A stretch of DNA of 64,000 bases. Origin: a virus. Taxonomy: Duplodnaviria > Caudoviricetes. Positions 14,498 through 56,161 of this stretch are shown piece by piece (within the stretch, counting starts at the first letter, position 1; every line of letters starts with the position of its first letter). Both the position numbers and the translations under genes were made by a program. The DNA is taken from positions 1-64,000 of IMG/VR virus record IMGVR_UViG_3300033463_000088; one strand, given 5' to 3'. Below the pieces are notes generated by a model. That model was not told the origin of the DNA. It was given only the letters and a program-made list of their open reading frames with translations, and did not search any database.

Positions 14498-15433
14498 TTA
14501 AAATGAAAATCCGGCAAAGTTTCTAGCTGGTTTTTCTTCAGCTGGTTTTTCTTCAGTGGTTGTAGCAGTTGCTTTAGCAGGTTCTGCAGTACCAATAGCT
14601 GTATGAGCTTCGACATTGTTTGTACCAATAGCTGTATGACCAACTGCTGGAGCTGGTTTTGGATCTAATGCAGCGTCCATCTCTGCTTCTTCTTTAGCGC
14701 TAGCAAAGACTGGATCACCACCAACTTTGATACCATTATCTAATGTTCTCATACCATCATCAGCTTTTTCAGCTTGAGGGAAGGAACCGTTAGCTAAGTA
14801 GTATTCTAAATCTTCTGCTGGTTTTTCCCAGTAGGAATGTTTATTGATATTGAAATTATCAAAAGCGCTGAAATCTGTAGAAACTAATTCTGGCTTATCA
14901 TAAAGTGGAATGAAGTCTAAGGAATACTTAGTATCTTTACCAGAACCTTGACGTGTAACTTTGAAAACATGTTCTTTTAAGCTACCATAATCTTTTAACT
15001 TTGTTGCTAATTCTCTTGAGAAACCAGCAGGACGTTCCCAAACGACTGGTTGAGCAACACTCCAACTACCTGTTGCAGCGTCTTTATAAGCAACTAACAT
15101 TTCAACATAAACTGTTTTAGCAGCTTTACCGACGACATCATGACCTTCAGCTGCAGCGCGGCAGAATGGGCAAGTATCGGAATAGGAACCAACTTCATTT
15201 AAGCAGCTAACTGGTGTAAAGCCTGTTCCGAGGCCTTCAAACTTTTTACCAAAAGCTGGTTTATGAACTGTTGCGAATTTTAAATCTTCAATTGTAGCAG
15301 CATTAATTCTGACGAGCGCTTCATCACCATTGCCTTTTAACTTGAAGAAACCGACTTTAACGGCGTTTGTAGATGGACCACTTTGGGCTTTTTCTACGAC
15401 TTTTTGATAATCATTGTAATTAAATTGACTCAC
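14498..15433 (-). CDS. single-stranded DNA-binding protein (phage type)
   Basis: FFKLK, VWERP, FKVTRQGSGKDTKYSL; acidic/low-complexity tail ending in F; sits between primase and polymerase. Confidence 0.7.
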   Translation of the reverse strand: MSQFNYNDYQKVVEKAQSGPSTNAVKVGFFKLKGNGDEALVRINAATIEDLKFATVHKPAFGKKFEGLGTGFTPVSCLNEVGSYSDTCPFCRAAAEGHDVVGKAAKTVYVEMLVAYKDAATGSWSVAQPVVWERPAGFSRELATKLKDYGSLKEHVFKVTRQGSGKDTKYSLDFIPLYDKPELVSTDFSAFDNFNINKHSYWEKPAEDLEYYLANGSFPQAEKADDGMRTLDNGIKVGGDPVFASAKEEAEMDAALDPKPAPAVGHTAIGTNNVEAHTAIGTAEPAKATATTTEEKPAEEKPARNFAGFSF

Positions 15434-18470: not shown

Positions 18471-19022
18471 TTATTTGGTTCCTGTAGAACCTGCCCAACC
18501 TTCTCCTCTGGTTGTTTTTTCTTTATAAAATTCTAATGGTGTTTTATCTACAATTTCAAGTGGCTCTGTTGAGATTAAATGAGGAATAAATTGAATAACT
18601 TTTTGTCCGCATTCTATCTCTTGCCAGTCATCAGAAGTATTAATTAAATGGAAATGCCATTCACCTTGATAGGAGCAATCAATAACTGATGCGCCGAAAA
18701 TTAATTTCTTCTTTGTAGCAATACCAGATTTATTATTTGCAATCAAAGCTAACTCAGGACCAAACTTACTTCTAATACCACTTGGGATAATAACATCTCT
18801 GTGAGGTCTAATGTGAATTTTTCCTGTATCAACTTCATAAACAACTGGGTTTGCGCAACCTTTGATTACTGCATCAGAAGTTGTAAACCAAGTAGCTGGG
18901 TTTTTATCTTTCATGTCTCTTTGAAATTCTTCAGTATTTTCTGGAATAAATAAATCAATTCCAGCATTTTCTTCGACAACCCTTATAGGGTCTTTAACAT
19001 TTCTTGTTTTAATAAATTGCAT
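18471..19022 (-). CDS. dut: trimeric dUTPase
   Basis: AGIDL, KSGIA, VIDCSYQGE, QFIP, RGEGWAGSTG. Confidence 0.92.
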   Translation of the reverse strand: MQFIKTRNVKDPIRVVEENAGIDLFIPENTEEFQRDMKDKNPATWFTTSDAVIKGCANPVVYEVDTGKIHIRPHRDVIIPSGIRSKFGPELALIANNKSGIATKKKLIFGASVIDCSYQGEWHFHLINTSDDWQEIECGQKVIQFIPHLISTEPLEIVDKTPLEFYKEKTTRGEGWAGSTGTK

Positions 19023-19068
19023 TATCTACACCTCATAATATTATACAATAGCGATGCGCGTAAAATGA

Positions 19069-19109
19069 GTATAAAAATAAAATATCGTCCAATTTTTTCG
19101 GACGATATT
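19069..19109 (-). terminator. intrinsic terminator (part of an alternative-structure element)
   Basis: 10-bp stem aatatcgtcc/ggacgatatt (19081-19090 / 19100-19109) followed by a U-rich tract on the minus strand. Confidence 0.7.
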
Positions 19110-19229
19110 CAACTTAAATATAGAAAATGTAAGGGTATTTTTTAGGTATCATTTACAGTATCTTTTAAGTTAAATATCGTTGATATTTTATCTTATAGAA
19201 CGCTCAACGCGCTCACTTAATTTAGCCAA

Positions 19230-19589
19230 TTATTCTTGCGGTAAATTAGCAAAATCTTGACATAATTGTTGATATTTTGGGCTTGCCCTTGTCTCATCAA
19301 TTTTGTCTTTATAAACAGTAGGCATGTTTAGAACCCAGTCTTTACAATCTGCTAAGGAGGCAAATCTTAAGAGAGCTCCTTTGATAGGACAAGCAATCAT
19401 TGGAATTGCTGTACCAGATTTGATATCAACAATTTTCCAACGAAGTTCTGGATATAAAGCTCTACCTTGCTCTTTATAAGCAAAGAGTTCATAACCAATT
19501 GCTGTTCCTGAAACTTTGACTGCTGCGTAGTGATGATCTTTTGCTTCTTCATCTCAAACACGAGTATAAATTCTAAATTCTTTTGCCAT
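19230..19589 (-). CDS. hypothetical protein with in-frame TGA
   Basis: Absent from the ORF track; MAKEFRIYTRV[TGA 19554-19556]DEEAKDHH...FANLPQE-TAA, 119 aa, fills the gap after folD exactly. Confidence 0.7.
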
Positions 19590-19591
19590 AC

Positions 19592-20377
19592 TTAATTTAG
19601 CTTTCCTAATTCAATTAAATTATCTAAAACAGCAATTCGGGTCATAAGACCGACACCGCCAGGGACTGGACTTTGGAACTTAACATGTAAGTCTTTATCA
19701 CAGTCTCCAGTAAGCTTTCCATCTTCACCAACATTGATGCCGACATCAAACACTATTGCGCGAGCTTTTAGTTTATATTTAGAAGTTAATGTATGTTGAT
19801 GACCAGTAGCAACAACTATCAAGTCAGCGTGTTTCAAATAAAATGCTTTATCTGATTCACTTGTCTTTGAATGCAACACTGTGACATTCATACTTTCTTT
19901 GAGTAATAGTTGAGCCATTGGTTTACCAACAATATTTGAACGTCCAATAACTACAGCATTTTTTCCTTGGAAGTCATATTTCATATCTTTTAGATAATTG
20001 TAAATGCCAAGAGGAGTTGCTGGAACAGTTTTTGATAAAGGATGGAATCCATCAATATCTTTTTCAGGAGCAATAGCAAGTTTAACTTTTTCTTCAGAGA
20101 TATGTTTTGGAAGAGGTAGCTGAACTAAATAACCTGTCAAATCTGGGTCAGCATTTAAGCCTTCCATTAAGTTTAATAATTCAACTTCAGTAGTTTCTTC
20201 CGGGAGATTAATAATTTCGCAATCAATGTTCACCTCAGCAGCATCCTTAGCTTTATTTCGAACATATCTGTCTGAGGCAGGAACATGTCCAATTTGAACA
20301 ATAACCATCTTCAAATCAGGATGTGAATTTTTTAATTTTTCTTTCTTTTCTGCTACATATTCTTTAATTATTTGCAT
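19592..20377 (-). CDS. folD: bifunctional 5,10-methylene-THF dehydrogenase/cyclohydrolase
   Basis: YVRNK, LVQLPLP, KDIDGFH, PATPLG, GRSNIVGKP, DVGIN, PVPGGVGLMT. Confidence 0.95.
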   Translation of the reverse strand: MQIIKEYVAEKKEKLKNSHPDLKMVIVQIGHVPASDRYVRNKAKDAAEVNIDCEIINLPEETTEVELLNLMEGLNADPDLTGYLVQLPLPKHISEEKVKLAIAPEKDIDGFHPLSKTVPATPLGIYNYLKDMKYDFQGKNAVVIGRSNIVGKPMAQLLLKESMNVTVLHSKTSESDKAFYLKHADLIVVATGHQHTLTSKYKLKARAIVFDVGINVGEDGKLTGDCDKDLHVKFQSPVPGGVGLMTRIAVLDNLIELGKLN

Positions 20378-20387
20378 ACTAATCTCC

Positions 20388-20636
20388 TTACCAACTAACT
20401 ATAAAATTTGGATAATCTGGCCAGGCAACATTAACATTAAAGCCTTCAGAACTAATATAATCGCTAACGTCCCAAATAAGATATCTATTTCCATATTTAT
20501 CTGGGATTCTAAAAATCATTTCTCTATTTCCGCGCTCCGCTTCCATTTTTATATAATGATGGAGCTCATCAATAAATTGTTCTCTTGTAGTTCTTGGGTC
20601 AACCCCAGCTAGTTGTCTTGCTTCTTTTGCTGTCAT
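20388..20636 (-). CDS. hypothetical protein
   Basis: 82-aa ORF in the operon, with RBS. Confidence 0.65.
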   Translation of the reverse strand: MTAKEARQLAGVDPRTTREQFIDELHHYIKMEAERGNREMIFRIPDKYGNRYLIWDVSDYISSEGFNVNVAWPDYPNFIVSW

Positions 20637-20637
20637 A

Positions 20638-20781
20638 TTATTTCCTCTTTTTTTGATTATTTAGCCATTGATAAAACTCATTTGTTGCATCTCTGCAATA
20701 AAATGAGTCTGGCTTTGCAGTACAACCACTTGCGGTTTTATATCTGCAAAAATCACATTTAGTATATCTTTTACTAACCAT
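20638..20781 (-). CDS. small Cys-rich hypothetical protein
   Basis: Not in the track; MVSKRYTKCDFCRYKTASGCTAKPDSFYCRD...KRK, 47 aa, fills the gap between fhs and the next ORF. Confidence 0.55.
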   Translation of the reverse strand: MVSKRYTKCDFCRYKTASGCTAKPDSFYCRDATNEFYQWLNNQKKRK

Positions 20782-20782
20782 A

Positions 20783-22534
20783 CTAATTAAATTTATCTAA
20801 GCAGCGAGGTTCTTTTGGTAAACCTGGCATTAATAATAATTTGCCAGATAATGGAACAATTAAACCTGCGCCACTATATAATCGGATTTCTCTAATATGA
20901 ATTGTAAATCCAGTTGGAGCTCCAAGAACTTTTGGATCATCTGTTAATGAGTTTGGAGTCTTACTGATACAAACAGGAAGATGACTATAACCCATATCAG
21001 TATATTTTCTCATTTGTTCTCTAGCTAAATCGGAATATTCAATTCGATCAGCACCATAAATATTATGACAGATAGTTCCAATCTTATCATCAATAGAGTA
21101 ATTTCTGTAATCACCTTGAGGATAAAGTGGATATAATGGTTCAAAGTGGTCAGCTAATTCTGGGAAGACACTAACTGCTTCGCTATCTTGAACATTTAAG
21201 ATGCCTTGGACAGTTCTTGCTAAACTGACAGCGCCATCGCCACCATCAAGAGCAGCAGTATTAATTGCCCAATTAATTTTATTTTCTTTACACCAAGCTC
21301 CAATAGCTTCTAATTCAGCATCAGTATCACTTGGGAAACGGTTAATAGCAACAACAACTGGGACACCATATCTTGTCATATTTTCATAATGCTTTTGTAA
21401 ATTACAAATACCAGCTTTAACTGCTTCAACATTTTCTTTTTCTAAATCTTCAAATGCAACACCACCATGAAGCTTTAATGCTCTAGCAGTGGCAACTAAG
21501 ACAATAACATTTGGATGAATTCCTGCTAATTGACATTTAATATCTAAGAACTTTTCAGCTCCGAGGTCTCCACCGAATCCGGCTTCTGTGACAACAACGT
21601 CAGATAATTTAAGCGCTAACTTTGTTGCATTGATAGAATTAACACCGATAGAGATATTAGCGAATGGTCCGCAATGCACTAAAACTGGATTTTCTTCAAG
21701 TGTTTGAACAACATTTGGATTCATTGCATTTCTCATCATTTTAAGAATTGCTTTACTACAATTGAATTGTCCAAAGTAAACTGGATTTCCATCATAGTCA
21801 TAAGCAGCAATAATCTTATTAACTCTATCAATAAACTCTTCTTCGCTTTGAGAAATTGTTAAAATTGTCATAAGTTCAGAAGCAACTGTAATAACAAATT
21901 CTGAGTTATGATTTGATTTCTTGTCTCTTAATTTTTTAAGGTCTTCTTTAGTGCCGCCATTAAGAGATAATTTATCTAATTCAATATCTAAATTTCTGCC
22001 ATCTAAATCAAAACCAGCGGTGCCATCAGCATTGACGCCGACACTTCTCAATGAACGGTCATTAACGTCAAGCGCACGTTTCCATTCAATTCTTCTTGGA
22101 TCAATTCTTAATTCATTGCCTTGCCAAATATGGTTTTCGATAATGGCAGACATTAAATTAATAGTAGAAGTTAACGCATGAAAATCGCCTGTGAAATGTA
22201 AATTAATATCATCACTTGGAACAATAGTTGATTTTAAGGCACCAACTGCTCCACCCTTAATGCCCCAAACAGGGCCTAAAGATGGTTCTCTTAAACAAGC
22301 AAGAGAATTAACACCAATTCTACGTAAGCCATCGTGTAGGCCAATTGTAGTTGTAGTTTTGCCTTCACCGGCTTTTGTTGGAGTAATAGCTGTTACTAAT
22401 ACTAATTTACCGTCAGGTCTGTCTTTCAAAACCTCACGGTATTTATAGTCAATCTTAGCTTTATCCCAACCATAAGGTTGGACATATTCATTAGGTATAC
22501 CTAATTCTTTAGTTAAATCTAAAATATTTTTCAT
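20783..22534 (-). CDS. fhs: formate--tetrahydrofolate ligase
   Basis: TAITPTKAGEGKTTT, LREPSLGP, INLHFTGDFHA, VHCGPFANI, TEAGFGGDLGAEKF, MPGLPKEP. Confidence 0.97.
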   Translation of the reverse strand: MKNILDLTKELGIPNEYVQPYGWDKAKIDYKYREVLKDRPDGKLVLVTAITPTKAGEGKTTTTIGLHDGLRRIGVNSLACLREPSLGPVWGIKGGAVGALKSTIVPSDDINLHFTGDFHALTSTINLMSAIIENHIWQGNELRIDPRRIEWKRALDVNDRSLRSVGVNADGTAGFDLDGRNLDIELDKLSLNGGTKEDLKKLRDKKSNHNSEFVITVASELMTILTISQSEEEFIDRVNKIIAAYDYDGNPVYFGQFNCSKAILKMMRNAMNPNVVQTLEENPVLVHCGPFANISIGVNSINATKLALKLSDVVVTEAGFGGDLGAEKFLDIKCQLAGIHPNVIVLVATARALKLHGGVAFEDLEKENVEAVKAGICNLQKHYENMTRYGVPVVVAINRFPSDTDAELEAIGAWCKENKINWAINTAALDGGDGAVSLARTVQGILNVQDSEAVSVFPELADHFEPLYPLYPQGDYRNYSIDDKIGTICHNIYGADRIEYSDLAREQMRKYTDMGYSHLPVCISKTPNSLTDDPKVLGAPTGFTIHIREIRLYSGAGLIVPLSGKLLLMPGLPKEPRCLDKFN

Positions 22535-23112
22535 TAATAATTTTTCTCCAGTTTATCTTTATTAACATTATACCAAGAAACAAAATCATCGAGAGAGTCA
22601 GAGCCATCTAATTGAGTTAATAATTTAACTAATAACTTTTCTGAGTCAACATGCATTGCTCTTTGACCTTCACACTTAGCTTTCCAATAATCTAATGGTG
22701 TATGAACTGTCCAAGCTTCTTTTGAATAAGCTTTACCAGCACCAACAAAGTCACAGAACATTTCAATAACTCTTTCATAAGGCATTTTAACGCACTTACA
22801 AATAATTGTAAAAGTTCCGTCGCCATTTGGCTTGGCTTCGTTGAAATCAGTCCAATATTCCCAGTGATGTAAATTACGTGCTTTGTGGTGAATCCAGCTT
22901 GGGCTATAGCCTAACTTAGCTCTTGCAATATCATGCGGGCTTTTTGTGCCATCAGCGTATTTATAAATTTCAAACTCATCTGGACTAAACTTACTTAAAT
23001 CATGTTGCTCACCAAGTTCTGGAATTCCCATTTGATAACATAAATCTCTAACAACTTTAATATGATTATTTATAGTTTGAGTATGTAAGTCTCTTTTTTC
23101 TTTATCTGTCAT
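22534..23112 (-). CDS. DUF5662-like HD-related protein
   Basis: HDLSK, WIHHK..N.HHWEYW, EMFCD. Confidence 0.65.
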   Translation of the reverse strand: MTDKEKRDLHTQTINNHIKVVRDLCYQMGIPELGEQHDLSKFSPDEFEIYKYADGTKSPHDIARAKLGYSPSWIHHKARNLHHWEYWTDFNEAKPNGDGTFTIICKCVKMPYERVIEMFCDFVGAGKAYSKEAWTVHTPLDYWKAKCEGQRAMHVDSEKLLVKLLTQLDGSDSLDDFVSWYNVNKDKLEKNY

Positions 23113-23375
23113 TATTTAGTCTCCTGTTTAACTGTAGTAGCTGTCACCATATTTTTACCTTCTTGGGTAGGCGCGATAATAATATCATTTAAACCCTGCT
23201 CATAACAAATTTCTTTAAGTCTTTTGCACAAATTATAAACATCTTCTTTTGGCATTTTACCAACTTCAACATTTAAAATTACTACTTCACCAGGAGTATA
23301 AGTTTTAACTACTTTTTGAATAGTCATCTTTTGAACTTCTTCTTTAATAAATTCTTTAATTTGTTTATCTGTCAT
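23112..23375 (-). CDS. hypothetical protein
   Basis: Translationally coupled 87-aa ORF. Confidence 0.65.
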   Translation of the reverse strand: MTDKQIKEFIKEEVQKMTIQKVVKTYTPGEVVILNVEVGKMPKEDVYNLCKRLKEICYEQGLNDIIIAPTQEGKNMVTATTVKQETK

Positions 23376-23871
23376 TATTAAGCTCCTTTACAACAGCATT
23401 AATTTCTTCTCTTAAATCTGTATACCAAGATTTTTTAAGTCTTTGTAATCTTAATTTAATATACTCAGTTTTTTCTGCCCAATCAGGCATTCCAACAATA
23501 ATTCTATTAATTCTGTCTGGCCATAAATAAGAACCAAGCTCTATATTAGTAGTAAAAGCTGGATTATCTTTATCTCTTGGAATCCAGAATACTATTCTAT
23601 CTGCTACATACATAGCATTGAGCTCCCAGTCAGTTTGGTGTTTTAACTCATCTTTAGCTTCTCTATCAAAGAGTGCATTTGTTGGGCTAAATACAATACC
23701 AATATAACCGGCTTCTTCTAAATACTTAAAAGCTTCATTTCGCCAGTCATTTTCATAATTTTTTCTTGGACATGGGCCTGCTAAAAAAATTGTAGGCAGC
23801 TCAGCAAAATTATAAGCTTCTTTTAATGGGTCAGTAAAACCGTTTTTATCTTTTGGAAAAATTTTAATCAT
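23365..23871 (-). CDS. nucleoside 2-deoxyribosyltransferase-like protein
   Basis: IFLAGP..R..W, Q..WE, ADRIVFWIPR, TTNIELG; start reassigned to MIKIFPKD. Confidence 0.7.
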   Translation of the reverse strand: MIKIFPKDKNGFTDPLKEAYNFAELPTIFLAGPCPRKNYENDWRNEAFKYLEEAGYIGIVFSPTNALFDREAKDELKHQTDWELNAMYVADRIVFWIPRDKDNPAFTTNIELGSYLWPDRINRIIVGMPDWAEKTEYIKLRLQRLKKSWYTDLREEINAVVKELNNDR

Positions 23872-24016
23872 TTGGGCTTTCAACTCTATCACCAAGTTCA
23901 AGCTCTTCCATTAAACGTTTTTCTTCAGCTTTTTCAACTGGATCGAGCTCTCTTGTTTCAGAAATACAAGCTAATTCCATTAAACGTCTGTGAACGTATT
24001 GTTTTCTGTTTGACAT
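23864..24016 (-). CDS. small hypothetical protein
   Basis: Not in the track; MSNRKQYVHRRLMELACISETRELDPVEK..., 50 aa. Confidence 0.55.
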   Translation of the reverse strand: MSNRKQYVHRRLMELACISETRELDPVEKAEEKRLMEELELGDRVESPND

Positions 24017-24017
24017 A

Positions 24018-24191
24018 TTAGACCCTCGCAATAACATCTTGTAAAGCTTTAATTAAATTTGTTGAATCAACATCGAGACCATCAACTTCACTATCGGCAA
24101 TAGCTTTTGCTAATGCGCCTAAAATTTGGCCTGCTTTTGTTAAAGCTTCCACTTCTTCCTTTGAAAATTCTGCAATTTTTTTGACTTCCAT
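24018..24191 (-). CDS. small hypothetical protein
   Basis: Not in the track; MEVKKIAEFSKEEVEALTKAGQILGALAK..., 57 aa, RBS aaagga. Confidence 0.6.
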   Translation of the reverse strand: MEVKKIAEFSKEEVEALTKAGQILGALAKAIADSEVDGLDVDSTNLIKALQDVIARV

Positions 24192-24206
24192 TTTATTTTA
24201 TCCTTT

Positions 24207-24467
24207 CTATATAAATTGTAATAATACACCAATTAAAGCTGCTGCTATACAAAACATACAGGTAGTAGCAGCATTGCTTCTCATTTTAAGAGCAAGATTC
24301 AGCAATGTATCTTCGTCTTGTTCTAGTCCTTTTTCAACACAAGCATCATAAAATTCTTTAAAAGCTTTAGTAGATTTAGTAATGCTATAAGCGGAAAACC
24401 AAAAATACCCACTAACAAAGAATAAAATTACGCTTATAACAATAAGGATTACACCAATTAAATGCAT
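24207..24467 (-). CDS. small membrane protein (2 TM)
   Basis: Hydrophobic N- and C-terminal segments. Confidence 0.55.
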   Translation of the reverse strand: MHLIGVILIVISVILFFVSGYFWFSAYSITKSTKAFKEFYDACVEKGLEQDEDTLLNLALKMRSNAATTCMFCIAAALIGVLLQFI

Positions 24468-24964
24468 TCTGCGTCCTCTCTAGTCCACTCTTGTAATATT
24501 ATACCATTTTTTCTGAATAATTCTATTAAAGGTCCTCGTTCAGAACATGGATTATCGGGTTTTTCATGAACCAATAGGACTATTTTTGGTTCACCCTTAT
24601 AGTGAGTTATCTTCCTAACATCTTCAGCAATGCGTTCAAACTCAGGAATTAGATAACCATTGAAGTCTATTTTATCTAAATGTCGCCTATATGCACTTAA
24701 AAATGCACACGCAGGCCATTTATTTTGGTACTCACAAGGCCTTCCAGAACACATTTCTTCTGGAGTTTCTTCCTCTGAGAGTAAAAAACTCTCTTCTTTT
24801 ATACCAATAAGTAGGTTATTTTCATTAATATACTGACGCTTTCCATTGGCTGTATTAAGCCATTTTGGAGACCAAAATGAGGTATCTATCAAAATTAAGC
24901 TGTCATCAGTCATGAAACGGATATTTTGAAAGTAGGTTATATAATATTTATTTATCATTTCCAA
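24458..24964 (-). CDS. hypothetical protein (weak DUF488-like C-terminus)
   Basis: IVLLVHEKPDNPCSER motif. Confidence 0.5.
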   Translation of the reverse strand: MEMINKYYITYFQNIRFMTDDSLILIDTSFWSPKWLNTANGKRQYINENNLLIGIKEESFLLSEEETPEEMCSGRPCEYQNKWPACAFLSAYRRHLDKIDFNGYLIPEFERIAEDVRKITHYKGEPKIVLLVHEKPDNPCSERGPLIELFRKNGIILQEWTREDAECI

Positions 24965-25847
24965 ATAAACTAAAAGTCACTTCGTCTGTTTCTAAATTTA
25001 TAGAGTCAATATGAAGAAATACTCTGCCTGCTTCACGCAATCTTCGACTAAATACCTCTAATAATTCATTAAATTTATCGTTATTAATAAGATCTGCTAC
25101 TTGTTCATTAACTATAAAGCTACCTGTTTTACCAGAATGCCAGTCAGAACCAATAAGTAAACTAGCATCATGAGCTTTTTGATTTTTTAACTCTTCTAAA
25201 TCTTTAACTAGCTTTACATCTATACGAATAGTTTTACCATTAATGATAATATCATAGTCTGCTAATTTACCCGGGTCTCCATTATAACAATAGGCATCAA
25301 ATGGGTCGAGACCAATACAAGAAATTCCTAACTCATTACAACTATCTTCAAAGATTGTTTGTTGAATATGACTATTAAGCTTTTTTTGTAATTTACTTTC
25401 ATAAGACCCTTCCCAAATAGGTGATCCCATTGTCTGTAATAATTTTCCATGACCAACAGGAAGCTTACTATATTCTTCAATAGAGCTAATTATATTATCA
25501 CAAAGAGGGCTTCTTTCATCAATCTGCCTAACACAAGTAATTTCGCCACCTATCTTTTCTGGAAGATATATGTCGAATTTAAATACAGTACCTCTAGCCT
25601 TAAAAATAATCCAAACCAAAAAAGTTTTTTGGCCATTTTCATTATAAAAAGTTCCAGCTATTATTGCTTTTTGTGATACAGCAGCATTGCCACTCATAAA
25701 AATATCTTTAGCTGCTTGCCAACCTTCTTCAGATAGTTCTTTTCTAGTATCTAATTTAGGGCATTTTGCCTTAGCTATATGATTTTGTAGCTTCTCTATT
25801 GGCCAATTAATTTGAGCCCACTGGGGTCGTAATGTTTCTATATTCAT
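24948..25847 (-). CDS. hypothetical protein, possible nuclease-like C-terminus
   Basis: 299 aa; ADYDIII...RIDVK resembles a PD-(D/E)XK core. Confidence 0.5.
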   Translation of the reverse strand: MNIETLRPQWAQINWPIEKLQNHIAKAKCPKLDTRKELSEEGWQAAKDIFMSGNAAVSQKAIIAGTFYNENGQKTFLVWIIFKARGTVFKFDIYLPEKIGGEITCVRQIDERSPLCDNIISSIEEYSKLPVGHGKLLQTMGSPIWEGSYESKLQKKLNSHIQQTIFEDSCNELGISCIGLDPFDAYCYNGDPGKLADYDIIINGKTIRIDVKLVKDLEELKNQKAHDASLLIGSDWHSGKTGSFIVNEQVADLINNDKFNELLEVFSRRLREAGRVFLHIDSINLETDEVTFSLFGNDK

Positions 25848-25858
25848 ATTATATTATA

Positions 25859-26389
25859 CTATTTTCTATTCCAAATTTGCTGGCTAATTGAATAACCATT
25901 TGTATACGCCATTCGGCAATCTAAGCCGTCATTCTTAAAATAAGGACTTGCGGCCATACATTGCCATTCTGGCATCTCACTGATATTAGGGAAGAAGGCA
26001 GTAGCTTCTGGGTCAATAGCGTCAACAAATGTAATATCTATTACTTGTGTGTAAGGGAGCATGCTAGCGTATAAACTCGCACCTCCGCAAATATATACAT
26101 CTTCACTAGTAGCTAGCTTTTGAATAAAATCAAGCATTTGATCAAACTTACTAAAGGTAATTGCGCCTTCTAAACAATCAATTGAAGGAGCATCTGCCCA
26201 TAAAACAACATTAACTCTATCTTTTAATGGTCTGTGTTTAAGCGACAAATATGTATTGTAACCAAATACACAGACTTTTCCAATAGTTTCACTTTTAAAA
26301 TGTGCCATATCGGCGGGAATATTAAATAAAAGACCATTGGCTTTTCCAATACCAAAGTCTTTTGCACAACAAACAATAGCTTTAATCAT
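25859..26389 (-). CDS. folA: dihydrofolate reductase
   Basis: IKAIVC, GIGK.NGLLFNIPADMAHFK, PLKDRVNVVL, YICGGASLY; start likely MIKAIV at 26389. Confidence 0.92.
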   Translation of the reverse strand: MIKAIVCCAKDFGIGKANGLLFNIPADMAHFKSETIGKVCVFGYNTYLSLKHRPLKDRVNVVLWADAPSIDCLEGAITFSKFDQMLDFIQKLATSEDVYICGGASLYASMLPYTQVIDITFVDAIDPEATAFFPNISEMPEWQCMAASPYFKNDGLDCRMAYTNGYSISQQIWNRK

Positions 26390-26768
26390 CTTTTGGGTCC
26401 TCAAAACTTAAACTTTGACTGCAAATTTTTGACCAGGGAGTTTGTCTTTTTTCAGCTGCTTCAAAAGCTTTTTGTTCAGCTTCCATCTCAATTTTCATTT
26501 GTTCATCATCTAACTCAGCTTTCGACTTATCACCCGAGCTATAACCACCTGCAAAACCACAATGCGGGCATTTCCTACCAAGTCTAATATACTTTAAAGT
26601 AGAAGTATCAGCTGGGTTTGCTTGACTATAAGCAGCTTCACTTTCTAAAGCATAAAAAGTCTTACTGCAGCAAGGACATTGAATAGTAACAATTTTTTCA
26701 CCTGTTTCTATTGCTAAGTTAGTAACTTCATCTAAGTTTCTTTCTAATTCTGTCATATTATTTTCCAA
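26382..26768 (-). CDS. zinc-ribbon hypothetical protein
   Basis: CPCC and CPHCG pairs. Confidence 0.6.
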   Translation of the reverse strand: MENNMTELERNLDEVTNLAIETGEKIVTIQCPCCSKTFYALESEAAYSQANPADTSTLKYIRLGRKCPHCGFAGGYSSGDKSKAELDDEQMKIEMEAEQKAFEAAEKRQTPWSKICSQSLSFEDPKDD

Positions 26769-27357
26769 TTAATTTTCTTAATTTTTCAGCACAGTCTTCA
26801 CAAATGTGTCTTGGACTTTCATGTAAACCATTATGAATACTTGTATAAATAAGCGGAATCTCAAAAATTTCTCCGCAAATTTCACATTTAGAATAAGCTT
26901 TTACTTCTGGGTCTGCAATTTTAAGTGGTTCAGCTAAGGCGCCTTCTATTGAAATATGACCATTGTTATCCATAGTATAAGTAGCAGCACCTTCTTCAGT
27001 AATGCCTTCTTCATTAATAGAAATTGTTTCTTGTGTCCATTTAATTGGTGGTTCATATAAATCTTTATCTTCCTGACTTGGTGTTACCTGTTCATATGTG
27101 CCATCATACAGCTCATAAGTGAACATAGAGCTGCCAGTATTACAATATTTACAGTGCCAGCCATATTGTGGCGGGTAAGAAGTTAAAATTACTCCTGTAT
27201 CAACAAGAGCCACTTTACCGCATTTTGGGCACTTAATATAAACTTTATTATTCACCCAAACATAATTATTAAAAGTATGATTTTTAATATCAACTGGTTT
27301 TACTTTTAATGTAGTTTTACCATCACCGGCATCAAATATATATTCTTTATCTGTCAT
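26758..27357 (-). CDS. zinc-ribbon hypothetical protein
   Basis: CPKCG/CKYC and CEICG/CEDC pairs. Confidence 0.6.
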   Translation of the reverse strand: MTDKEYIFDAGDGKTTLKVKPVDIKNHTFNNYVWVNNKVYIKCPKCGKVALVDTGVILTSYPPQYGWHCKYCNTGSSMFTYELYDGTYEQVTPSQEDKDLYEPPIKWTQETISINEEGITEEGAATYTMDNNGHISIEGALAEPLKIADPEVKAYSKCEICGEIFEIPLIYTSIHNGLHESPRHICEDCAEKLRKLIGK

Positions 27358-28202
27358 TATTCAGCTACCTCAAACTTTTCTTCAAGCTTAGTTGCTTGAT
27401 AATTTTCTAATTCAAAGTCTTCTTCTTTGAAATCATAGAAGTCTTTGACATTTGGATTTAATTTTAATGTTGGAGCATCATACTCTGGGTTTTCTAAGAG
27501 CTTTCTAACTACTTCAACATGTCTATCATAAATGTGTAAATTATGTACGATATGAACTAATGTTCCAACTTGATAACCACAAACTTGGGCTAACATATGC
27601 GTTAAAATTGCATATTCCATAGTATCCCAACCGCCTGAACTTGCAGCAGCAAGTAAGTCGCCAGAACGTTGAATAAGGGTGCAGTTTAATTTACCGTCAG
27701 TTACATCCCAAAGACTTTCATAAACACATGGAGGTAAAGCCATATCATGTAAATCTTCTGGGCACCACATGGTGACGATCATACGTCTATCCATAGGCTT
27801 ATTCTTTAATAAATAAATTAAGTTATCAACTTGATCAAAATCGCCGTAAGAATAATGAGAAACCTTACCTAATTGATAACCATAGGTCTTACCAATAGTT
27901 CCATCAGGTCTTTCCCAAGCTCTCCAAATCGCGGCGCTAGGGCCTAATTCATTAACAACGTTGGATTTCTTCTGCCACATCCATAAAAGCTCTCTTACGA
28001 CGCCTTTAAATGCTTGTTTTCTAAGTGTTAAAGCTGGAAACTCTTTTGATAAATCATATCTACGAACAACACAATGTGTTTTAATAGTATGAGCTGGTGT
28101 ACCATCTTCCCAATGTGGTCTGACTTCATAGTCCTTATCATTAAAACCATTTGTTAATAATTCAATTGCTTCTGAAATAAAATATTTATCTGCTTGACTC
28201 AT
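27357..28202 (-). CDS. thyA: thymidylate synthase
   Basis: RELLWMW, YGYQ, DRRMIV, MALPPC, QRSGD, HNLHIYDRH. Confidence 0.95.
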   Translation of the reverse strand: MSQADKYFISEAIELLTNGFNDKDYEVRPHWEDGTPAHTIKTHCVVRRYDLSKEFPALTLRKQAFKGVVRELLWMWQKKSNVVNELGPSAAIWRAWERPDGTIGKTYGYQLGKVSHYSYGDFDQVDNLIYLLKNKPMDRRMIVTMWCPEDLHDMALPPCVYESLWDVTDGKLNCTLIQRSGDLLAAASSGGWDTMEYAILTHMLAQVCGYQVGTLVHIVHNLHIYDRHVEVVRKLLENPEYDAPTLKLNPNVKDFYDFKEEDFELENYQATKLEEKFEVAE

Positions 28203-28419
28203 CAGTCTCTTCCTCCTGTATATAACGTCCTGACCATTTCCTTATCATTTCACAAAGAGTCTTAAGCTCTCCCTGTCTTTCTTTTGGCCAATCATATTTA
28301 GTAATCTTAGTAATAAGTCTATCTGCTGTGATAGATGCATAAGTATTAATATAAATTGGAAAGGGCAATTCAAACTCTTTTTGTTCAGACTCGAAAACAA
28401 TTCTACTTATTTTCATCAT
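28186..28419 (-). CDS. hypothetical protein
   Basis: 77-aa ORF overlapping neighbouring genes within the operon. Confidence 0.55.
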   Translation of the reverse strand: MMKISRIVFESEQKEFELPFPIYINTYASITADRLITKITKYDWPKERQGELKTLCEMIRKWSGRYIQEEETDESSR

Positions 28420-28885
28420 CTAAAGCTTTCTTCATCTTATCTAAGATGCCTTCAACTAATTTTCTTGTGTTTTCATGAAGAACCATATCTTTATGCTTTG
28501 CATACCAGTCAAAGATTTCTCTTAAATTGCCTGTCTTATGAGAAAAACTCCACCAGTCAGCAATCATTTCATAGACATATTGTTCTGGCATTTCAAGAGC
28601 TTCTTCTGGTTCATCATCGTGTTTTAATACCCAGTATTGCCAATGATGAGGATTTGCATGAATATGATGAAGCCAAGCATAATTAAAGGCTTTTTCTACT
28701 TCTTTTGTTCTTTTACCATAGAAATAATCATCATAAGCTTTGTATTCCTCAGCTGTATATTTAGAAACATCGTGTAAACCAAATGAAATCTTTTCTGGAA
28801 TAATTTGATGTTCATATAACCAGTCTGCTGCTTTTTGAACATTAGCAACATGAGTTGTAATATAACTTGTGTATTCTTGACTCAT
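28403..28885 (-). CDS. DUF5662-like HD-related protein (second copy)
   Basis: HDVSKY, AWLHH..ANPHHWQYW, EMIADW. Confidence 0.7.
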   Translation of the reverse strand: MSQEYTSYITTHVANVQKAADWLYEHQIIPEKISFGLHDVSKYTAEEYKAYDDYFYGKRTKEVEKAFNYAWLHHIHANPHHWQYWVLKHDDEPEEALEMPEQYVYEMIADWWSFSHKTGNLREIFDWYAKHKDMVLHENTRKLVEGILDKMKKALDDENK

Positions 28886-28890
28886 TATTT

Positions 28891-29214
28891 TTAACCTCTC
28901 TTATCAAACATATCATCATCTTCTAATAATGCTCTAAGTAACAAAAGATAATTAATATTATCTTGGATCTTTTCTTCCCAAAGTTCTTTAGAATATTTAT
29001 GCTCACTTGCCACCATATCAGCTAAACTTTTAATATGCTTATACATAAACATATATAAAGTTCTTTCTGGAGATAGTTGAGTTAAATCATTACCTTGCTT
29101 AAAGAAAGATAATCTATCTTTATCTAAATTATACTCAGTTTGTTTAACACCTAAAGTGGCTTTACACTTTTCGAGCATTTCTTCAACAATTTTATTAAAT
29201 TTTTCATGTGTCAT
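28891..29214 (-). CDS. nucleotide-modification-associated (Nmad1/DUF1599-like) helical protein
   Basis: K..EY..D.D.L..F, KH...L.D, EKIQDNINYLLLL pattern. Confidence 0.5.
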   Translation of the reverse strand: MTHEKFNKIVEEMLEKCKATLGVKQTEYNLDKDRLSFFKQGNDLTQLSPERTLYMFMYKHIKSLADMVASEHKYSKELWEEKIQDNINYLLLLRALLEDDDMFDKRG

Positions 29215-29816: not shown

Positions 29817-32800
29817 ATGAATCTAATCAGACGTCAATTATTAAAATTAATGCCAGTGGGTCATACCCTTGAAATCATTGCTGACAGTAGTTATGTTGGC
29901 AAGGTTTTTTATTGCACTTGTAAATATGATGGTCGAGTAGTTTCTGGTTCATGGATTATTTCATATGGCGACCAATTCGCGTCTATTAATGAAAATGGTA
30001 AAGTTACTATTTATGAAGACGTTCTTGGTGAAGATATTGAAATCACCTGTACTTATGAAGATTCTATTGCCGTTGTTGAAATTAATATTTCTTATGATAA
30101 CCAATTAACTATTGAATGTGCCGACACAATTACAGGCACTTCTGGTAATGCTTTTGCAAGATATAATTCTACTGTTGTTACTCCTACTTGGTCTATTACT
30201 TCTGGTGGTGCTTATGCTTCTATTGATGCTACAGGCGCTATCACAATTACTGATTCAGGCCAAATAACTTTACAGGCTGTGTATACAACATATACTACTA
30301 CTAAAACTATTAATGTTGTATACGACGCCGGAACTACTACTGAAACAACACTTGGTGATGATGGCTCAGTTACTACAGAAACAACTACTACAACAACTGA
30401 TCCTGAAACCGGAGCTGTTACAGAAACAACTACTTCCCAAACAACAAATGAAGATGGCTCTACAAGTTCTACTTCTATTGAAACAACTACTAATGAAGAT
30501 GGTTCGAGTTCAACTACTTCTACTACTACAAATTCTGATGGTTCAAGTAGTGAAACAACTTCTACTACCTCTGCTCCAGACCCAGAAACAGGTGCTGTCA
30601 CAACCGAAACTAGCACTTCTACAACAAATGCTGACGGAACAAGTAGTGAAACAACTGCAACCATAGTTGAAAATGAAGATGGTTCAAGTGAGTCAAGTTC
30701 CGAAACTATTCACTATGATGAGAACGGCGACGTCGCAGGTTCCACCGAAAATACAACTACTGTTAATACAGATGGTTCCAGCACAAGTCAAACAAACAAC
30801 TACGATGAAAACGGCGATCCGACATCAACAACAAATAATGATGTTGACGCATCTGGTAATAGTTCAACACAAGAAATTGAATATGATGATAATGGTGATC
30901 CTGTTGTCACCGAATATACTATCGATACTTCAGGCGGCAGCGGTGATGGTAAAGAGATTGAAGATGGTATCAATACTGAATACTATGCCTTCGACACAAC
31001 TAGAGGCTTTATTTTAGACATTGACTTTGTTATTGACTTTGCTCATCAACCAGCAAACCAAAACGAAAATCACCATAATATTTTAACTGCAAAAAGAGCA
31101 AGCCCATCTCCTTGGTATGGCTTCCAAATTAGACAATCTGGCACCAATAAATACGTCCAATTAGGTACACAATTTGCAACAGGTAACAATACTAATACTA
31201 CAATTAGCCCAATTGGTATGACTAATAATATTGCTGAATATATTTTACAAATTACTTATGATCCAACTCTTGCTTCAAATAATTTTATTTGTCGAGATTT
31301 AAAATCAGGCAATATTGTTTTTAGCGCAAGTAATAAATTCCCGGACATTGAAGCTCTTAAATACTTAAAAGTCTGCTTAGGCTACGCGATGGATGAAAAT
31401 GGTGATCCGTATAGATATTCTAATATCGCTGTTAAAAACTTCTCCCTTGTTAAGTTATCTAATGTTCTCTCACCAAGTATTAGTAGTAATGGTCGTTATA
31501 TTATTATTACTACAAATGAAACAGGTGCTACAACATATTATAGATTAAATCAATCTGGCAGTTTCCAAGAATATACTGGACAAATTGCTATGGTTAATGA
31601 TACTACTGTTGAAGCTTATTCTATGTTAGATGGCTTCACAAGTGTAACTGTCTCAGAATATTGCACTTATACTGGTCTTAAAAAACCAACTATTTCTTGT
31701 GATGGCCAGCTAGTCACTATTACTTGTGATACAGTTGGCGCATCTATTCATTATAGACTAAATCAAACTGGTGAATATATTGTTTATAATGCTCCAATTA
31801 CTATCTTTGAAGATACTATTGTTCAAGCTTATTCTGAATTAGGCGGCGACACAAGTGAAACAGTTAGAGTAGTTTGTGTTTATGATGATGCTCATAACTA
31901 CGCGGAAGATTATTTAACATTTAAGATTACTTCTAACGGAACTGTTGTCTGGAAGTCTATTGGCTCAGGTATGGCTAAAACTATTCAATATAGTTTAAAT
32001 GATGGCGCTTGAACCGATTTAGCTGCAACTGGTGGTGGTGCAACTATTACAGTTTATACAGGTGATGAAATTAGATTTAAGGGCTCAAATACTGCTTATG
32101 CGAAAGATAAGTCTAACTATTCTGGTTTTACTGGTGGCACTGCTACTTTTGACATTGAAGGTAATATCATGAGTTTAATTCATGGTGATAATTTCAGTGG
32201 CGAAACAGCTTTAACTGCTACCTATGCATTCTGCTCTATATTTAAACAAGCGGCAGTTGTTAATGCTGAAAACTTAATTTTACCTGCAACTACATTGACT
32301 AATTACTGCTACAGAGCTATGTTTAGTAAATGTCCTAACTTAGTAGTTGCTCCGGCTCTTCCAGCTACTACATTAACAACAGGTGTTTATTGGTATATGT
32401 TTGAAGAATGCCCAATTACAACTGCCCCTGTTCTTAATGCAACTACATTAACAACTGAATGTTATGGTCATATGTTTACTGGTTGCGGAAGCTTAAATTA
32501 TATTAAATGTTTAGCAACAAGTATTAGTGCAAGTAAAGCTTTAGAAGGTTGGGTTACTAGTGTTGCCGGTGTCGGTACATTTGTCAAAGCTGATGGTATT
32601 GCTTGGTCTACTGGTGTTGCAGGCATTCCTTCTGGATGGACCACTTATGTTAATGGTCAAGAGCCAGAGCCAGAAGAGCAAGATGACGTCTGGAGAATTG
32701 GGGGTCAATCAGTTACATTACCTTATTCATTAAATGCTATTGACGGCCACTCATCTGGCTATGCTAAGGGAACTTATAACTTTGTTGTAACTACTACCTT

Positions 32801-34604
32801 AGATGCTGTTCAACCAACTTATTTACAATTTGAACATGCTGACCAATCTGCTGAAATCTATGTTAATAACTCCTTAGTTACTACACACTGGGGCGGTTAT
32901 AACTCATTCACAGTAGATATTACTAATTATATTCATTTAGGGTCAAATAAAATTCAAGTTTCTATTTGTAATACAACAAGAAATACTCTCGCCCCTTGCG
33001 CTGGTGACTTTAACTTTAACGCAACTCTCGGCGATGTCTATTTAGTCTCAGGTGCTATTTTACCTGATACTATTTACGGCTATGATGGCTTCTGGATTAG
33101 CTCAGTTGTTTCTGATGCTGCCGCAGCTGTTACTGTTAAAACTACTGTTGCAAGTGAAGCCACTGTTGTATTGACTGTCTCAGACGGAACTTATACATAT
33201 ACTGATAGTCAAACAGATACTGGAGATATTACATTTAACTTTACTGTTAATAACCCGCATCTCTGGAACGGAAAATCTGACCCATATTTATATGATTTCA
33301 CCTTAGAAATTTATGATGGCCAAGATTTATGTTTCACTTCTACAAGACCTTATGGCTTCAGATATTATAGTTATGTATTTAATAATACTTCTGTTATTCC
33401 AGGAGAAACATATACTGGCTTCTTACTTAACGGCGCGCCATATTTATTAAGGGGCGTTTGCATGCACCAAGACTTGGAATATAAAGCAAATGCTCTTACT
33501 TCTGCTGATATTGCCCATGACTTTGAAATTATTCAAGATTTAGGCTGTAATTTTATCCGAACTGCCCACTATCCGCATCCAAGAGAATTCTATGACTGAT
33601 GTGATGAATTAGGCATTGTCGTTCAAACAGAAACTCCTTGGGTCAATAAAGCTCAATCTACTTACCCAACTGATTATTATGACCACTTAGGTAGTCAAGT
33701 TAGAGACATGGTTACTCAACATTATAACCACCCATCTATTATTTTCTGGGGTTTAGCAAACGAAATTACAACTGATGATAAAACCTTCGCAAAAACAAAA
33801 ATTGAAGGATATAAAGCTATTATTAATACTTATGACACTTCAAGATATGTCGGCTATGTCGTCAGCCATAGCTATCCAAACGGCTTAGGCACATTCAATG
33901 ACCCAGATGTTGACTATATTGGTCAAAACTTATATGTTGGTTGGTATATTGATACAAATACTAATAACCCATCTTCAAGAATTAATACTTGTTTAGGTTA
34001 TGCTAATAATCATAATAAACCAATGGCTTTATCTGAATACGGCTGCGGTGGAACTCAACGTTGCCACTCTGTAGACTTTATGACAACTACTACAAGGGGC
34101 AACAATCCAAGACACGATATTGAATATAATATGTGATTACATGAAGGTCATATCGCGGCTATTAAGAATTATCCGCAACTTATCTATACATCACAATGGG
34201 TTTTATTTGATTTCGCGGTCACAAGTAGACAAGAAGGTTATACAATTTGTTTAGATGGTGAAAATACTTCTACAAATGAGGACTTAAAGAGACTAAATAA
34301 TAAAGGTCTTGTTGAAAGAGATCACGTCACTAAGAAAGATACATATTATTTATATAAAGCTTGGTGAAACCCAACAAGTAAGTTCGTTCATATCTGTGGC
34401 AAAGAGTTTACACTTATTACTAGTAGACAAGTTAAATGTTATACTAATGATGGTGATACATTAGACCTCTATATTAATAACACTTTAACTGAGACCGCTG
34501 CTGTCTCTGATAACATTGCAATATTTACAGCAAGAACATTCTCGTCTGGCGACGTTATTAAGGTCCAAGGCGCGACGGTTTACGACACTTGAACAATTGC
34601 TTAG
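29817..34604 (+). CDS. 1595-aa modular protein: Ig-like, T/S/D-rich linker, lectin-like, Fn3/CHB-like, LRR-like and C-terminal GH2 glycoside hydrolase
   Basis: Track fragments 29817-32012, 32169-33599 and 33708-34136 are one frame joined by TGA at 32010, 33597, 34134, 34365 and 34590; stop TAG 34602-34604; GH2 motifs GVCMHQD, RTAHYPH, FYD[W]CDELG, NHPSIIFWGLANE, SEYG. Confidence 0.85.
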
Positions 34605-55700: not shown

Positions 55701-56161
55701 AAGCCTTGATATTCATTATCAATATAAATTTGAACAAAAGTAAAAGTAGCGGCCCAATGGCCTCTTAAAATTTGTTGTCCCATATATAATGCTAAGGCAT
55801 TTCTTAGCATTGAGTTGTCACCATAATCAGCTAATAAAATCCAATTTGTAGCAGCATGTCCATGATTTAAACCAAAAAGATTTTGAGGAGTGCTCAATGT
55901 AAGTCTAAATGGCTTTTTATTATACATAGAAGTATAATTACCACGAACCCTTATAGTTGCAGAAATATTCTGTAAAATAAAGTTGCTATCACAATTACTA
56001 GTTGAGACAGTTCCAGGAACCTCAGAACGAGGCTCACGTAGACGTTGTGCATTATACCAAGATTGTCATGAATTAAAAGAACTGCTACTCTCAATAAATG
56101 GAGTTCGGCAAGTAAAATCTAATCTAGGAGCTGAATTAAAAATAATATAATCTTTGGACAT
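52739..56161 (-). CDS. tandem CotH-family kinase protein (1140 aa)
   Basis: ATG 56159-56161; two copies of VRGNYT..KK.F...LFGL....W.LLA.Y.DNSMLRNAL...QGLYLLCD...CP[TGA]DHD / AP[TGA]DFD; all track fragments fall in one frame. Confidence 0.8.

Follow-up and report, generated by a model that had tools for sequence, protein, structure and literature searches.

The window analysed here, the first 64 kb of a 75,080-bp IMG/VR virus record (IMGVR_UViG_3300033463_000088; estimated completeness 33%), carries at positions 19592-28885 a block of genes encoding Fhs, FolD, DHFR and a homologue of the thymidylate synthase ThyA. The best reading of this block is a deoxycytidylate (dCMP) methylation system, similar to that of phage Xp12 and of independent origin, which is extended by a formate-assimilating Fhs-FolD supply encoded by the phage itself; we put at about 0.6 the probability that the block serves to modify DNA at the nucleotide level and supplies its own one-carbon units. 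The new elements are the link between an Asp-type ThyA homologue and the Fhs/FolD formate supply, and the distribution of this link. The phage is a ~220-kb TGA-recoded jumbo phage from the bovine gut: its complete or near-complete relatives measure 220-233 kb, with direct terminal repeats in one, and the sequencing runs containing the window sequence are bovine gut metagenomes, no RNA run being listed among them. The genome is AT-rich (GC ~33%). Hereafter, G000 designates the phage of the window, G001-G004 the complete or near-complete relatives, and L-numbers the IMG/VR loci (L009 is the locus in G001, L013 that in G002, and L031 and L042 are one contig).

Genes were identified by Pfam and NCBIfam profile searches and by alignment to solved-structure relatives. 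The features on which the argument is built are the following:

27357-28202, minus strand: ThyA-family enzyme, predicted dCMP C5-methyltransferase, 281 aa (PF00303, 253 bits, E 3.3e-75)
25859-26404, minus strand: DHFR (PF00186, 107.5 bits, E 7e-31; likely start ATG at 26389)
20783-22534, minus strand: Fhs, formate-tetrahydrofolate ligase, 583 aa (PF01268, 676 bits, E 2.9e-203)
19592-20377, minus strand: FolD, bifunctional methylene-tetrahydrofolate dehydrogenase / methenyl-tetrahydrofolate cyclohydrolase, 261 aa (both Pfam domains, E 4e-41 and 4e-31)
19080-19110, minus strand: terminator-like hairpin (13-bp stem and T run), which closes the ThyA-to-FolD block and sets the dUTPase-like gene apart
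18471-19022, minus strand: dUTPase-fold pyrophosphatase, divergent, 183 aa (weak Pfam match, 30 bits for a cut-off of 22)

As the original prediction had it, the five genes are intact open reading frames (ORFs), all on the minus strand and all with significant Pfam matches. Four of them belong to one co-directional stretch running from position 29214 down to the hairpin at 19110-19080, in the transcription order orf107, DUF5662b, orf77, ThyA homologue, two zinc-ribbon ORFs, DHFR, orf299, orf168, a small membrane ORF, an NDT-like gene, orf87, DUF5662a, Fhs, orf82, FolD and orf119. The dUTPase-like gene, which had been counted in the set, is present; however, it lies beyond orf119 and the hairpin, in the next transcription unit. 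Pairwise comparisons with relatives gave ratios of nonsynonymous to synonymous substitutions (dN/dS) of 0.08-0.18 for Fhs, FolD and the ThyA homologue (0.11-0.18 for Fhs, about 0.1 for the ThyA homologue), values that are rough as dS was near saturation in several pairs. These low ratios indicate that purifying selection maintains the three genes, which are hence no cargo in decay.

Specificity residues of the ThyA homologue

The best solved-structure relative of the ThyA homologue is Bacillus subtilis ThyA (1b02, E 1e-70); the protein shares 44% identity with B. subtilis ThyA and phi3T ThyP3, has PCV in place of PCH as they do, and nests among the Bacillota-type (B. subtilis/Lachnospiraceae type) ThyA sequences. 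The catalytic Cys146 (E. coli numbering) is kept in the motif PPCVYE. At position 177, an Asp (GGWD) replaces the dUMP-selecting Asn of E. coli ThyA, position 143 is a Leu (MALPPC), position 169 is an Asp (QRSGD) and the protein terminates in ...FEVAE. B. subtilis ThyA and ThyP3, which make dTMP, have Asn177 and a C-terminal Val, and the window protein differs from them at both positions. Asp177 is found in 119 of the 120 nearest database homologues (78-100% identity, all ~281 aa) as well as in 28 of 29 IMG/VR loci related to it at 61% identity or more; because of this conservation, it is not a sequencing error.

The three residues can be compared with published work. The N177D substitution turns ThyA toward dCMP, and an Asp at this position accompanies modified-cytosine contigs in viromes (PMC8670742); an acidic residue at 143 is associated with hydroxymethylation and D169N with flavin-dependent 5-hydroxylation (PMC13326640); and Xp12-type homologues with Asp177 have been proven to produce 5-methyl-dCMP (bioRxiv 10.1101/2024.12.05.627091). 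The combination of Leu143, Asp169 and Asp177 is therefore most likely a methylase signature, with dCMP as the probable substrate and a methyl group as the probable product. The dUMP provided by the dUTPase, proposed earlier as the substrate, is probably not the substrate of this enzyme, as Asp177 stands in place of the dUMP-selecting Asn. A 5-hydroxy-dCMP synthase of the RB69 gp48 type was considered and ruled out: D169N is missing, Asp169 being kept within QRSGD, and that chemistry requires O2.

The likeness to the Xp12 group (deoxycytidylate C5-methyltransferase, EC 2.1.1.54; also PaMx74, RDJL and Achromobacter JWX-type phages) extends to several further characters. Asp177 is common to both (Xp12 reads PYD), DHFR is encoded in the same operon, and the C-terminal residue is acidic or polar instead of Val/Ile. 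Directly upstream lies a nucleotide hydrolase gene in the Xp12 family (MazG, HAD or a 'nucleotide pyrophosphohydrolase') and a candidate one in the window, encoding the predicted HD-like DUF5662 protein. In Xp12 the gene order is ThyA homologue, dCMP deaminase (selective for 5-methylcytosine, 5mC) and DHFR, and an adjoining deaminase is also present in sister genomes of the clade. The differences are equally clear: the two enzymes are only 24% identical and independently derived, position 143 is a Leu in the window protein and an Asn in Xp12, and the window phage, a TGA-recoded jumbo phage from an anaerobic gut, has neither the deaminase nor a DNMK-type kinase but adds Fhs and FolD, which no examined Xp12-type record carries. 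Judged from its sequence, the ThyA homologue is thus of independent origin, Xp12-like in predicted function and not an orthologue of the Xp12 enzyme.

With regard to the C-terminus, a Glu (rarely Gln, Lys or Ala) replaces Val/Ile in two Asp177 lineages, the Xp12 family (L120:45326-46195, L121-L124) and the present clade (window 27357-27362). The terminal Glu is found in Xp12 (...PEVIE), PaMx74 and RDJL Phi 2, whereas RcRudolph has a Gln and JWX an Ala; the Lachnospiraceae cellular homologues (48-50% identity, Asn at 177) have the canonical EVAV terminus. This replacement may provide a second signature by which dCMP methylases can be recognised from sequence. The co-occurrence of an acidic C-terminus and Asp177 in lineages so distant strengthens the analogy with Xp12, and presumably has a functional meaning.

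Could the enzyme be an ordinary thymidylate synthase, converting dUMP into dTMP with formate-derived methylene-tetrahydrofolate? The strong Pfam ThyA match, a score above the general thymidylate-synthase model TIGR03284 (178.5 for a cut-off of 108.35), the B. subtilis enzyme as nearest solved structure, the AT-richness of the genome and the dUTPase-like gene nearby are all consistent with this explanation, and so is the single exception of the clade, L031:10001-10837, in which position 177 is an Asn, the terminus is a canonical ...IEIAV and Fhs and FolD are retained. Nevertheless we consider it quite unlikely for the window phage: Asp177 is near-universal in the clade and under purifying selection, it is found together with a terminal Glu in the Xp12 family, whose dCMP methylase activity is proven, a kinase and a deaminase of the kind typical of modified-cytosine phages are encoded in sister genomes, and the protein scores below the B. 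subtilis-type ThyA equivalog NF002495 (253.7 for a cut-off of 327 bits). L031 is on a long branch, sister to an Asp-type sequence (support 91/97), and seems to have reverted to a true thymidylate synthase; in L031/L042, the formate-to-dTMP pathway would hold literally.

The T4 pathway (gp42, gp56 dCTPase, gp1 dNMP kinase, frd/td) offers a second comparison, as it also employs a ThyA-fold enzyme with an Asp at the specificity position that acts on the nucleotide pool prior to replication, and as a gp1-type kinase is present in sister genomes of the clade. A dCMP hydroxymethylase like gp42, with Fhs and FolD supplying the methylene group and the DNA containing 5-hydroxymethylcytosine or a derivative, would share Asp177 with the window enzyme; the DUF1599 'nucleotide modification associated domain' gene of L009 and the NDT-like gene, to which no role is assigned, would also be compatible with it. 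However, gp42 has an Asp at 143, lacks the C-terminal tail and yields tetrahydrofolate (THF) and not dihydrofolate (DHF), whereas the window enzyme has Leu143, in place of the Asp/Glu of hydroxymethylases, and keeps the full thymidylate synthase-like C-terminal region. In addition, DHFR is conserved beside the sole ThyA-family gene, which fits with THF being oxidised to DHF (T4 has a separate true ThyA, td, and the clade has none), and no glycosyltransferase turned up among the ORFs scanned. Hydroxymethylation is hence very unlikely.

Fhs, FolD and the proposed formate-fed cycle

Fhs scores above the NCBIfam equivalog cut-off (NF010030; 670.5 for 652 bits), keeps its ATP P-loop (PTKAGEGKTTTT) and has 5a4j as best solved-structure relative (E 3e-166). 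It is 45-49% identical to cellular Fhs and has clade-specific characters: shortened termini, GGAVGALKST where cellular Fhs reads GGAAGGGY(A/S)Q, and a variable loop insertion of ~40 aa. These peculiar features are common to all Fhs proteins of the clade. FolD, the best solved-structure relative of which is 3p2o (E 8e-52), keeps the YxxxK motif and the Asp of DGF; a loop of ~13 aa after DGFHP is deleted clade-wide. The divergent features of both proteins are kept across the phage clade at 49-91% identity. DHFR, encoded 950 bp downstream of the ThyA homologue, keeps the equivalent of the catalytic Asp27 (PADMAHFK; best solved-structure relative 1zdr, E 2e-15) and is found beside the ThyA homologue in all but 4 of the 29 clade loci, these 4 being truncated or searched over 10 kb only.

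In the proposed cycle, Fhs would convert formate, THF and ATP to 10-formyl-THF, which FolD would transform via methenyl-THF to 5,10-methylene-THF with NAD(P)H. FolD is reversible, and the reductive direction of the flux is the one we infer here. The ThyA homologue would then methylate C5 of dCMP (not dUMP) with methylene-THF, releasing 5-methyl-dCMP and DHF, and DHFR would reduce DHF to THF to close the cycle, so that formate, ATP, two NAD(P)H and dCMP would yield 5-methyl-dCMP. The latter is presumably phosphorylated and built into the phage DNA in replacement of cytosine, as in Xp12, and the 5mC-substituted genome would be shielded from host nucleases. The formate-to-dTMP pathway of the original prediction is therefore retained in one part and modified in another: four intact, co-directional enzymes close a formate-driven folate cycle, whereas dTMP as end product does not fit with the conserved Asp177. 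A dTMP route would need a 5-methyl-dC deaminase, and G000 and the complete relative G001 are without one.

The same two enzymes, Fhs and FolD, assimilate formate in bacteria (methyl branch of the Wood-Ljungdahl pathway; one-carbon supply of Bacillota), and their catalytic motifs are kept in the phage proteins. In contrast to the bacterial pair, the phage pair would be coupled to a pyrimidine C5-methylase and not to methyl-THF/acetyl-CoA synthesis.

Descriptions of DNA hypermodification in phages usually begin with the modifying enzyme, the supply of the one-carbon donor being assumed to be the task of the host. Widespread uncultured gut and rumen jumbo phages appear to encode the supply line too, tying an anti-restriction DNA modification to the fermentation metabolite formate. 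In its widest form, which we advance tentatively and hold to be somewhat less probable than its negation, the proposal is that a rumen jumbo phage lineage pays for genome-wide cytosine methylation with fermentation formate, through a four-enzyme cycle independent of host serine-derived one-carbon units, that the sisters lacking Fhs/FolD carry instead a pyruvate formate-lyase, a dNMP kinase and a 5mC deaminase, and that this would be the first virus to encode the carbon-source end of a DNA-modification pathway. If true, the Fhs/FolD pair would be a testable pair of auxiliary metabolic genes with a known beneficiary enzyme, and the four enzymes a compact cassette for the production of 5-methyl-dC nucleotides from formate. 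The DNA of an abundant rumen phage group would be fully 5mC-substituted, which would affect virome sequencing, restriction-based methods and methylation-aware analyses, and annotators of such phages should examine any 'thymidylate synthase' at the level of single residues.

Distribution of the genes among phages and relatives

We surveyed 50,697 GenBank phage records and scanned 2.9 million IMG/VR contigs in a profile-guided manner. The GenBank records yielded 40 matches for Fhs and 59 for FolD, and the Lak megaphages were the only clear phage genomes with both, the two genes being hundreds of kb apart. The other matches were unverified faecal contigs, or short pieces filed as Listeria, Staphylococcus or Enterococcus phages that look like host DNA. 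The IMG/VR contigs yielded 70 Fhs loci, 11 of which belong to the present clade. In all 11, FolD is found within ~6 kb of Fhs, usually within 2 kb; DHFR and the ThyA homologue are present as well in 8, the other 3 being short contigs that end before ThyA. By comparison, FolD is located within 7 kb of Fhs in 3 of the other 59 loci, and ThyA or DHFR nearby in none. These data show that Fhs is rare in viruses and that, in the IMG/VR scan, only this clade links it to FolD, DHFR and ThyA. The earlier suggestion that Fhs and FolD together are unusual in phages is thus borne out: among clear GenBank phages the pair occurs only, and unlinked, in Lak, and in IMG/VR it is adjacent only in this clade. 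The phage-type Fhs is nevertheless represented by more than 120 database clusters at >=63% identity (at least 63%), and the phage group is therefore common in gut metagenomes.

Previous reports of phage-borne Fhs, as in the window, also concern anaerobes of the animal gut. A 2026 ruminant virome catalogue lists viral fhs as an auxiliary metabolic gene and ties it to the Wood-Ljungdahl pathway (PMC13669679); there, fhs is found alone and is linked to acetogenesis, not to nucleotide modification. The Lak megaphages encode FolD in addition, their Fhs and FolD being 39% and 37% identical to those of the window. We found no literature on phage Fhs together with FolD, nor any tying phage Fhs/FolD to a ThyA-family enzyme.

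These surveys bear on a further explanation, namely that Fhs and FolD act as auxiliary metabolic genes of a general kind, increasing the formyl- and methylene-THF of the host for purines, formylmethionyl-tRNA and the host ThyA, and that they lie next to the ThyA homologue only by virtue of an accessory hot spot. Most viral Fhs loci would agree with it (59 of 70 are without ThyA or DHFR nearby, and 56 of those without FolD within 10 kb), as would the distance between Fhs and FolD in Lak, the replacement of the region by NAD-salvage/PFL or anti-defence genes in relatives, and the Wood-Ljungdahl interpretation of the virome catalogue. We nonetheless regard it as unlikely, as (i) neither serine hydroxymethyltransferase (SHMT) nor an Fmt/PurN-type formyltransferase was found in the five genomes G000-G004, so that no phage-encoded enzyme other than the ThyA homologue was found to consume folate one-carbon units, (ii) a single co-directional block encodes all four folate enzymes of the closed cycle, and (iii) the phage-type Fhs is old, divergent and retained alongside FolD, DHFR and ThyA over a range of 61-91% identity.

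The gene neighbourhoods of the relatives are informative with respect to dCMP methylation. G001-G004 each have one ThyA-family gene and no ThyX, and DUF5662 and DHFR accompany the ThyA homologue throughout the clade. In G002-G004, the order is a T4-gp1-type dNMP kinase (DNMK; PF21448, 68 bits), ThyA(D), DUF5662, a PF00383 deaminase and DHFR, an arrangement that by analogy follows Xp12/T4 logic: in the Xp12-type system, the adjoining dCMP-family deaminase converts part of the 5mdCTP to dTTP (bioRxiv 10.1101/2024.12.05.627091). The deaminase is also present in L108, together with Fhs.

Fhs and FolD are both present in G000 and G001 and both lacking in G002 and G004, and G003 has a different FolD elsewhere. 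The deep-branching L030/L108, L031/L042 and L033 carry both genes; this distribution and the Fhs features common to the clade suggest one old acquisition followed by loss, and an old linkage. The FolD of G003 (G003:C1:178206-180537) is more bacterial-like (C-domain 234 bits), has the DNMK-type kinase ~1.3 kb away, is remote from the ThyA homologue, and looks like a separate acquisition or a rearrangement. In place of Fhs/FolD, G002 carries at L013:13163-18559 NadD-like, NadE, NAPRTase and isochorismatase/nicotinamidase-like genes (Preiss-Handler NAD salvage) and then a full-length pyruvate formate-lyase (PFL) with a glycyl-radical domain (667 bits); such a PFL and NAD-salvage cassette occupies the same region in the Fhs-less sister genomes. 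Through PFL, formate stays a recurring theme of the region. The apparent alternation between Fhs/FolD on the one hand and deaminase, DNMK and PFL on the other is not established, as it relies on five whole genomes and L108 holds both Fhs and the deaminase.

Several points weigh against dCMP methylation fed by formate. First, the assignment of substrate and product is based on three residues and on analogy, engineered N-to-D ThyA mutants retain some dUMP activity, and the general thymidylate-synthase model is passed, as mentioned above. Second, with T4 gp1, the DNMK of L013 and Tmk (PF02223) as queries, no DNMK-type kinase and no Tmk were found in G000 (75 kb) and the complete relative G001, which are also without a PF00383 deaminase; the phosphorylation of 5-methyl-dCMP and the supply of dTTP are therefore unexplained in these two phages, host ThyA or salvage being the default source of dTTP. 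A Walker-A scan of all ORFs of the 75-kb record retrieved the clamp loader and the UvsX-like protein as sole matches. Third, the ThyA-to-dUTPase stretch is an accessory hot spot, occupied in relatives by the NAD-salvage/PFL cassette or a Tad5-like gene, and co-location is therefore weaker evidence of a functional link. Fourth, the clade-specific changes of Fhs and FolD hit conserved segments, so that their catalytic activity is only predicted, and FolD (best 239.9 for 445), DHFR and the dUTPase-like protein all score under the NCBIfam equivalog cut-offs.

In the comparison with cellular genes, the ThyA homologue has its place among the Bacillota-type sequences. For Fhs, a single-sequence scan of 185,579 species genomes found no close copy of the phage protein, and donor and host could therefore not be named. 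A consistent host was not found from binning either, phage relatives being binned in Lachnospiraceae, Bacteroidales and Bacilli metagenome-assembled genomes. Among GenBank phages, the stretch 19000-29000 had no megablast match.

Remaining genes of the block and other observations

The other features of the block are as follows:

28403-28885, minus strand: DUF5662 copy b, directly upstream of the ThyA homologue; predicted HD-fold metal phosphohydrolase
26382-27357, minus strand: two small zinc-ribbon ORFs (128 and 199 aa), between the ThyA homologue and DHFR
24948-25847, minus strand: orf299, 299 aa; weak lead to restriction-endonuclease-like folds
24458-24964, minus strand: orf168, 168 aa; present in the closest relatives L007/L008/L032 and in the deep-branching L033 (all bearing Fhs/FolD), not in L009
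23365-23901, minus strand: nucleoside 2-deoxyribosyltransferase-like (NDT-like) protein (PF15891; Glu of ELG present)
22534-23112, minus strand: DUF5662 copy a, 192 aa, second HD-like paralogue, directly downstream of Fhs in window numbering
19230-19589, minus strand: orf119, 119 aa, no assigned role; open only if one in-frame TGA (19552-19554) encodes Trp

Alignment of 24 DUF5662 sequences identified the invariant residues H12, H38-D39, H74, H80-H81 and D110. The structure model (pLDDT 92.9) was aligned by VIA-align, with moderate Z scores, to the HD-GYP protein 9rbz (8.0; rmsd 3.5, 134 aligned) and to DatZ 6zpa, a cyanophage dATPase (4.5); the HD-fold matches come from VIA-align alone, as Foldseek gave no match below E 0.001. 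The PDB sequence search returned nothing significant and no literature on DUF5662 was found. As a reasonable guess only, DUF5662 is a candidate nucleotide hydrolase that would clear or convert dCTP. The dUTPase-like protein keeps the Asp/Tyr of motif III (VIDCSYQGE) and motif V (RGEGWAGSTG); its best solved-structure relative is 8y1q (E 3e-8) and its TIGR00576 score is below the cut-off (54.8 for 102.55). Both proteins may serve as cleaners of the nucleotide pool.

The NDT-like gene is a variable accessory, which also adjoins the ThyA homologue in L010 and L023, and the PDB sequence search with its product gave nothing significant. Its presence prompted us to consider a MilA/MilB-like free-base pathway (ThyA homologue plus N-glycosidase), which was set aside because not all clade members share the NDT-like gene and because its surroundings are those of a replication module. 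This module comprises, on the same contig, a PolIII-alpha-like polymerase, a clamp, a clamp loader, a DnaB-like helicase, a primase and a UvsX-like recombinase.

The early genes are readable under the standard code with the exception of orf119, a member of the early metabolic block, for which Pfam and NCBIfam gave no match and which shows no similarity to the DUF1599 protein of L009. The comparison of orf168 with the DUF488 protein of L009 was not significant (E 0.13). In L009, a Tad5-like gene (Thoeris inhibitor family; 10846-11328) directly follows the ThyA homologue, a DUF488 gene (13639-14022) is located between Fhs and FolD, and a DUF1599 ('nucleotide modification associated domain 1') gene (14826-15281) between FolD and DHFR.

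Elsewhere in the window, a 270-aa protein encoded at 9029-9841 (minus strand) has the motifs of S-adenosylmethionine (SAM) synthetases, an N-terminal HPDK and C-terminal GG..DcG.T.RK / GKD.SK.D, but lacks ~115 aa relative to the length of MetK. Possibly this is a minimal SAM synthetase-like enzyme of the phage and, as such, a second one-carbon-related gene. Glycosyl hydrolase family 2 domains at 32169-34136 (plus strand) are divided between two ORFs under the standard code. Among the late genes, 55316-55927 and 56165-56809 (minus strand) encode, respectively, a fragment resembling CotH kinases and a protein that has the Mtd (major tropism determinant) N-terminal domain, the latter hinting at a target of a diversity-generating retroelement. 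Finally, the 268-aa protein encoded at 2042-2848 (minus strand) resembles a fragment of pyridine nucleotide-disulphide oxidoreductases, matching the C-terminal two thirds of the family only, and may be a thioredoxin-reductase-like partner for nucleotide reduction.

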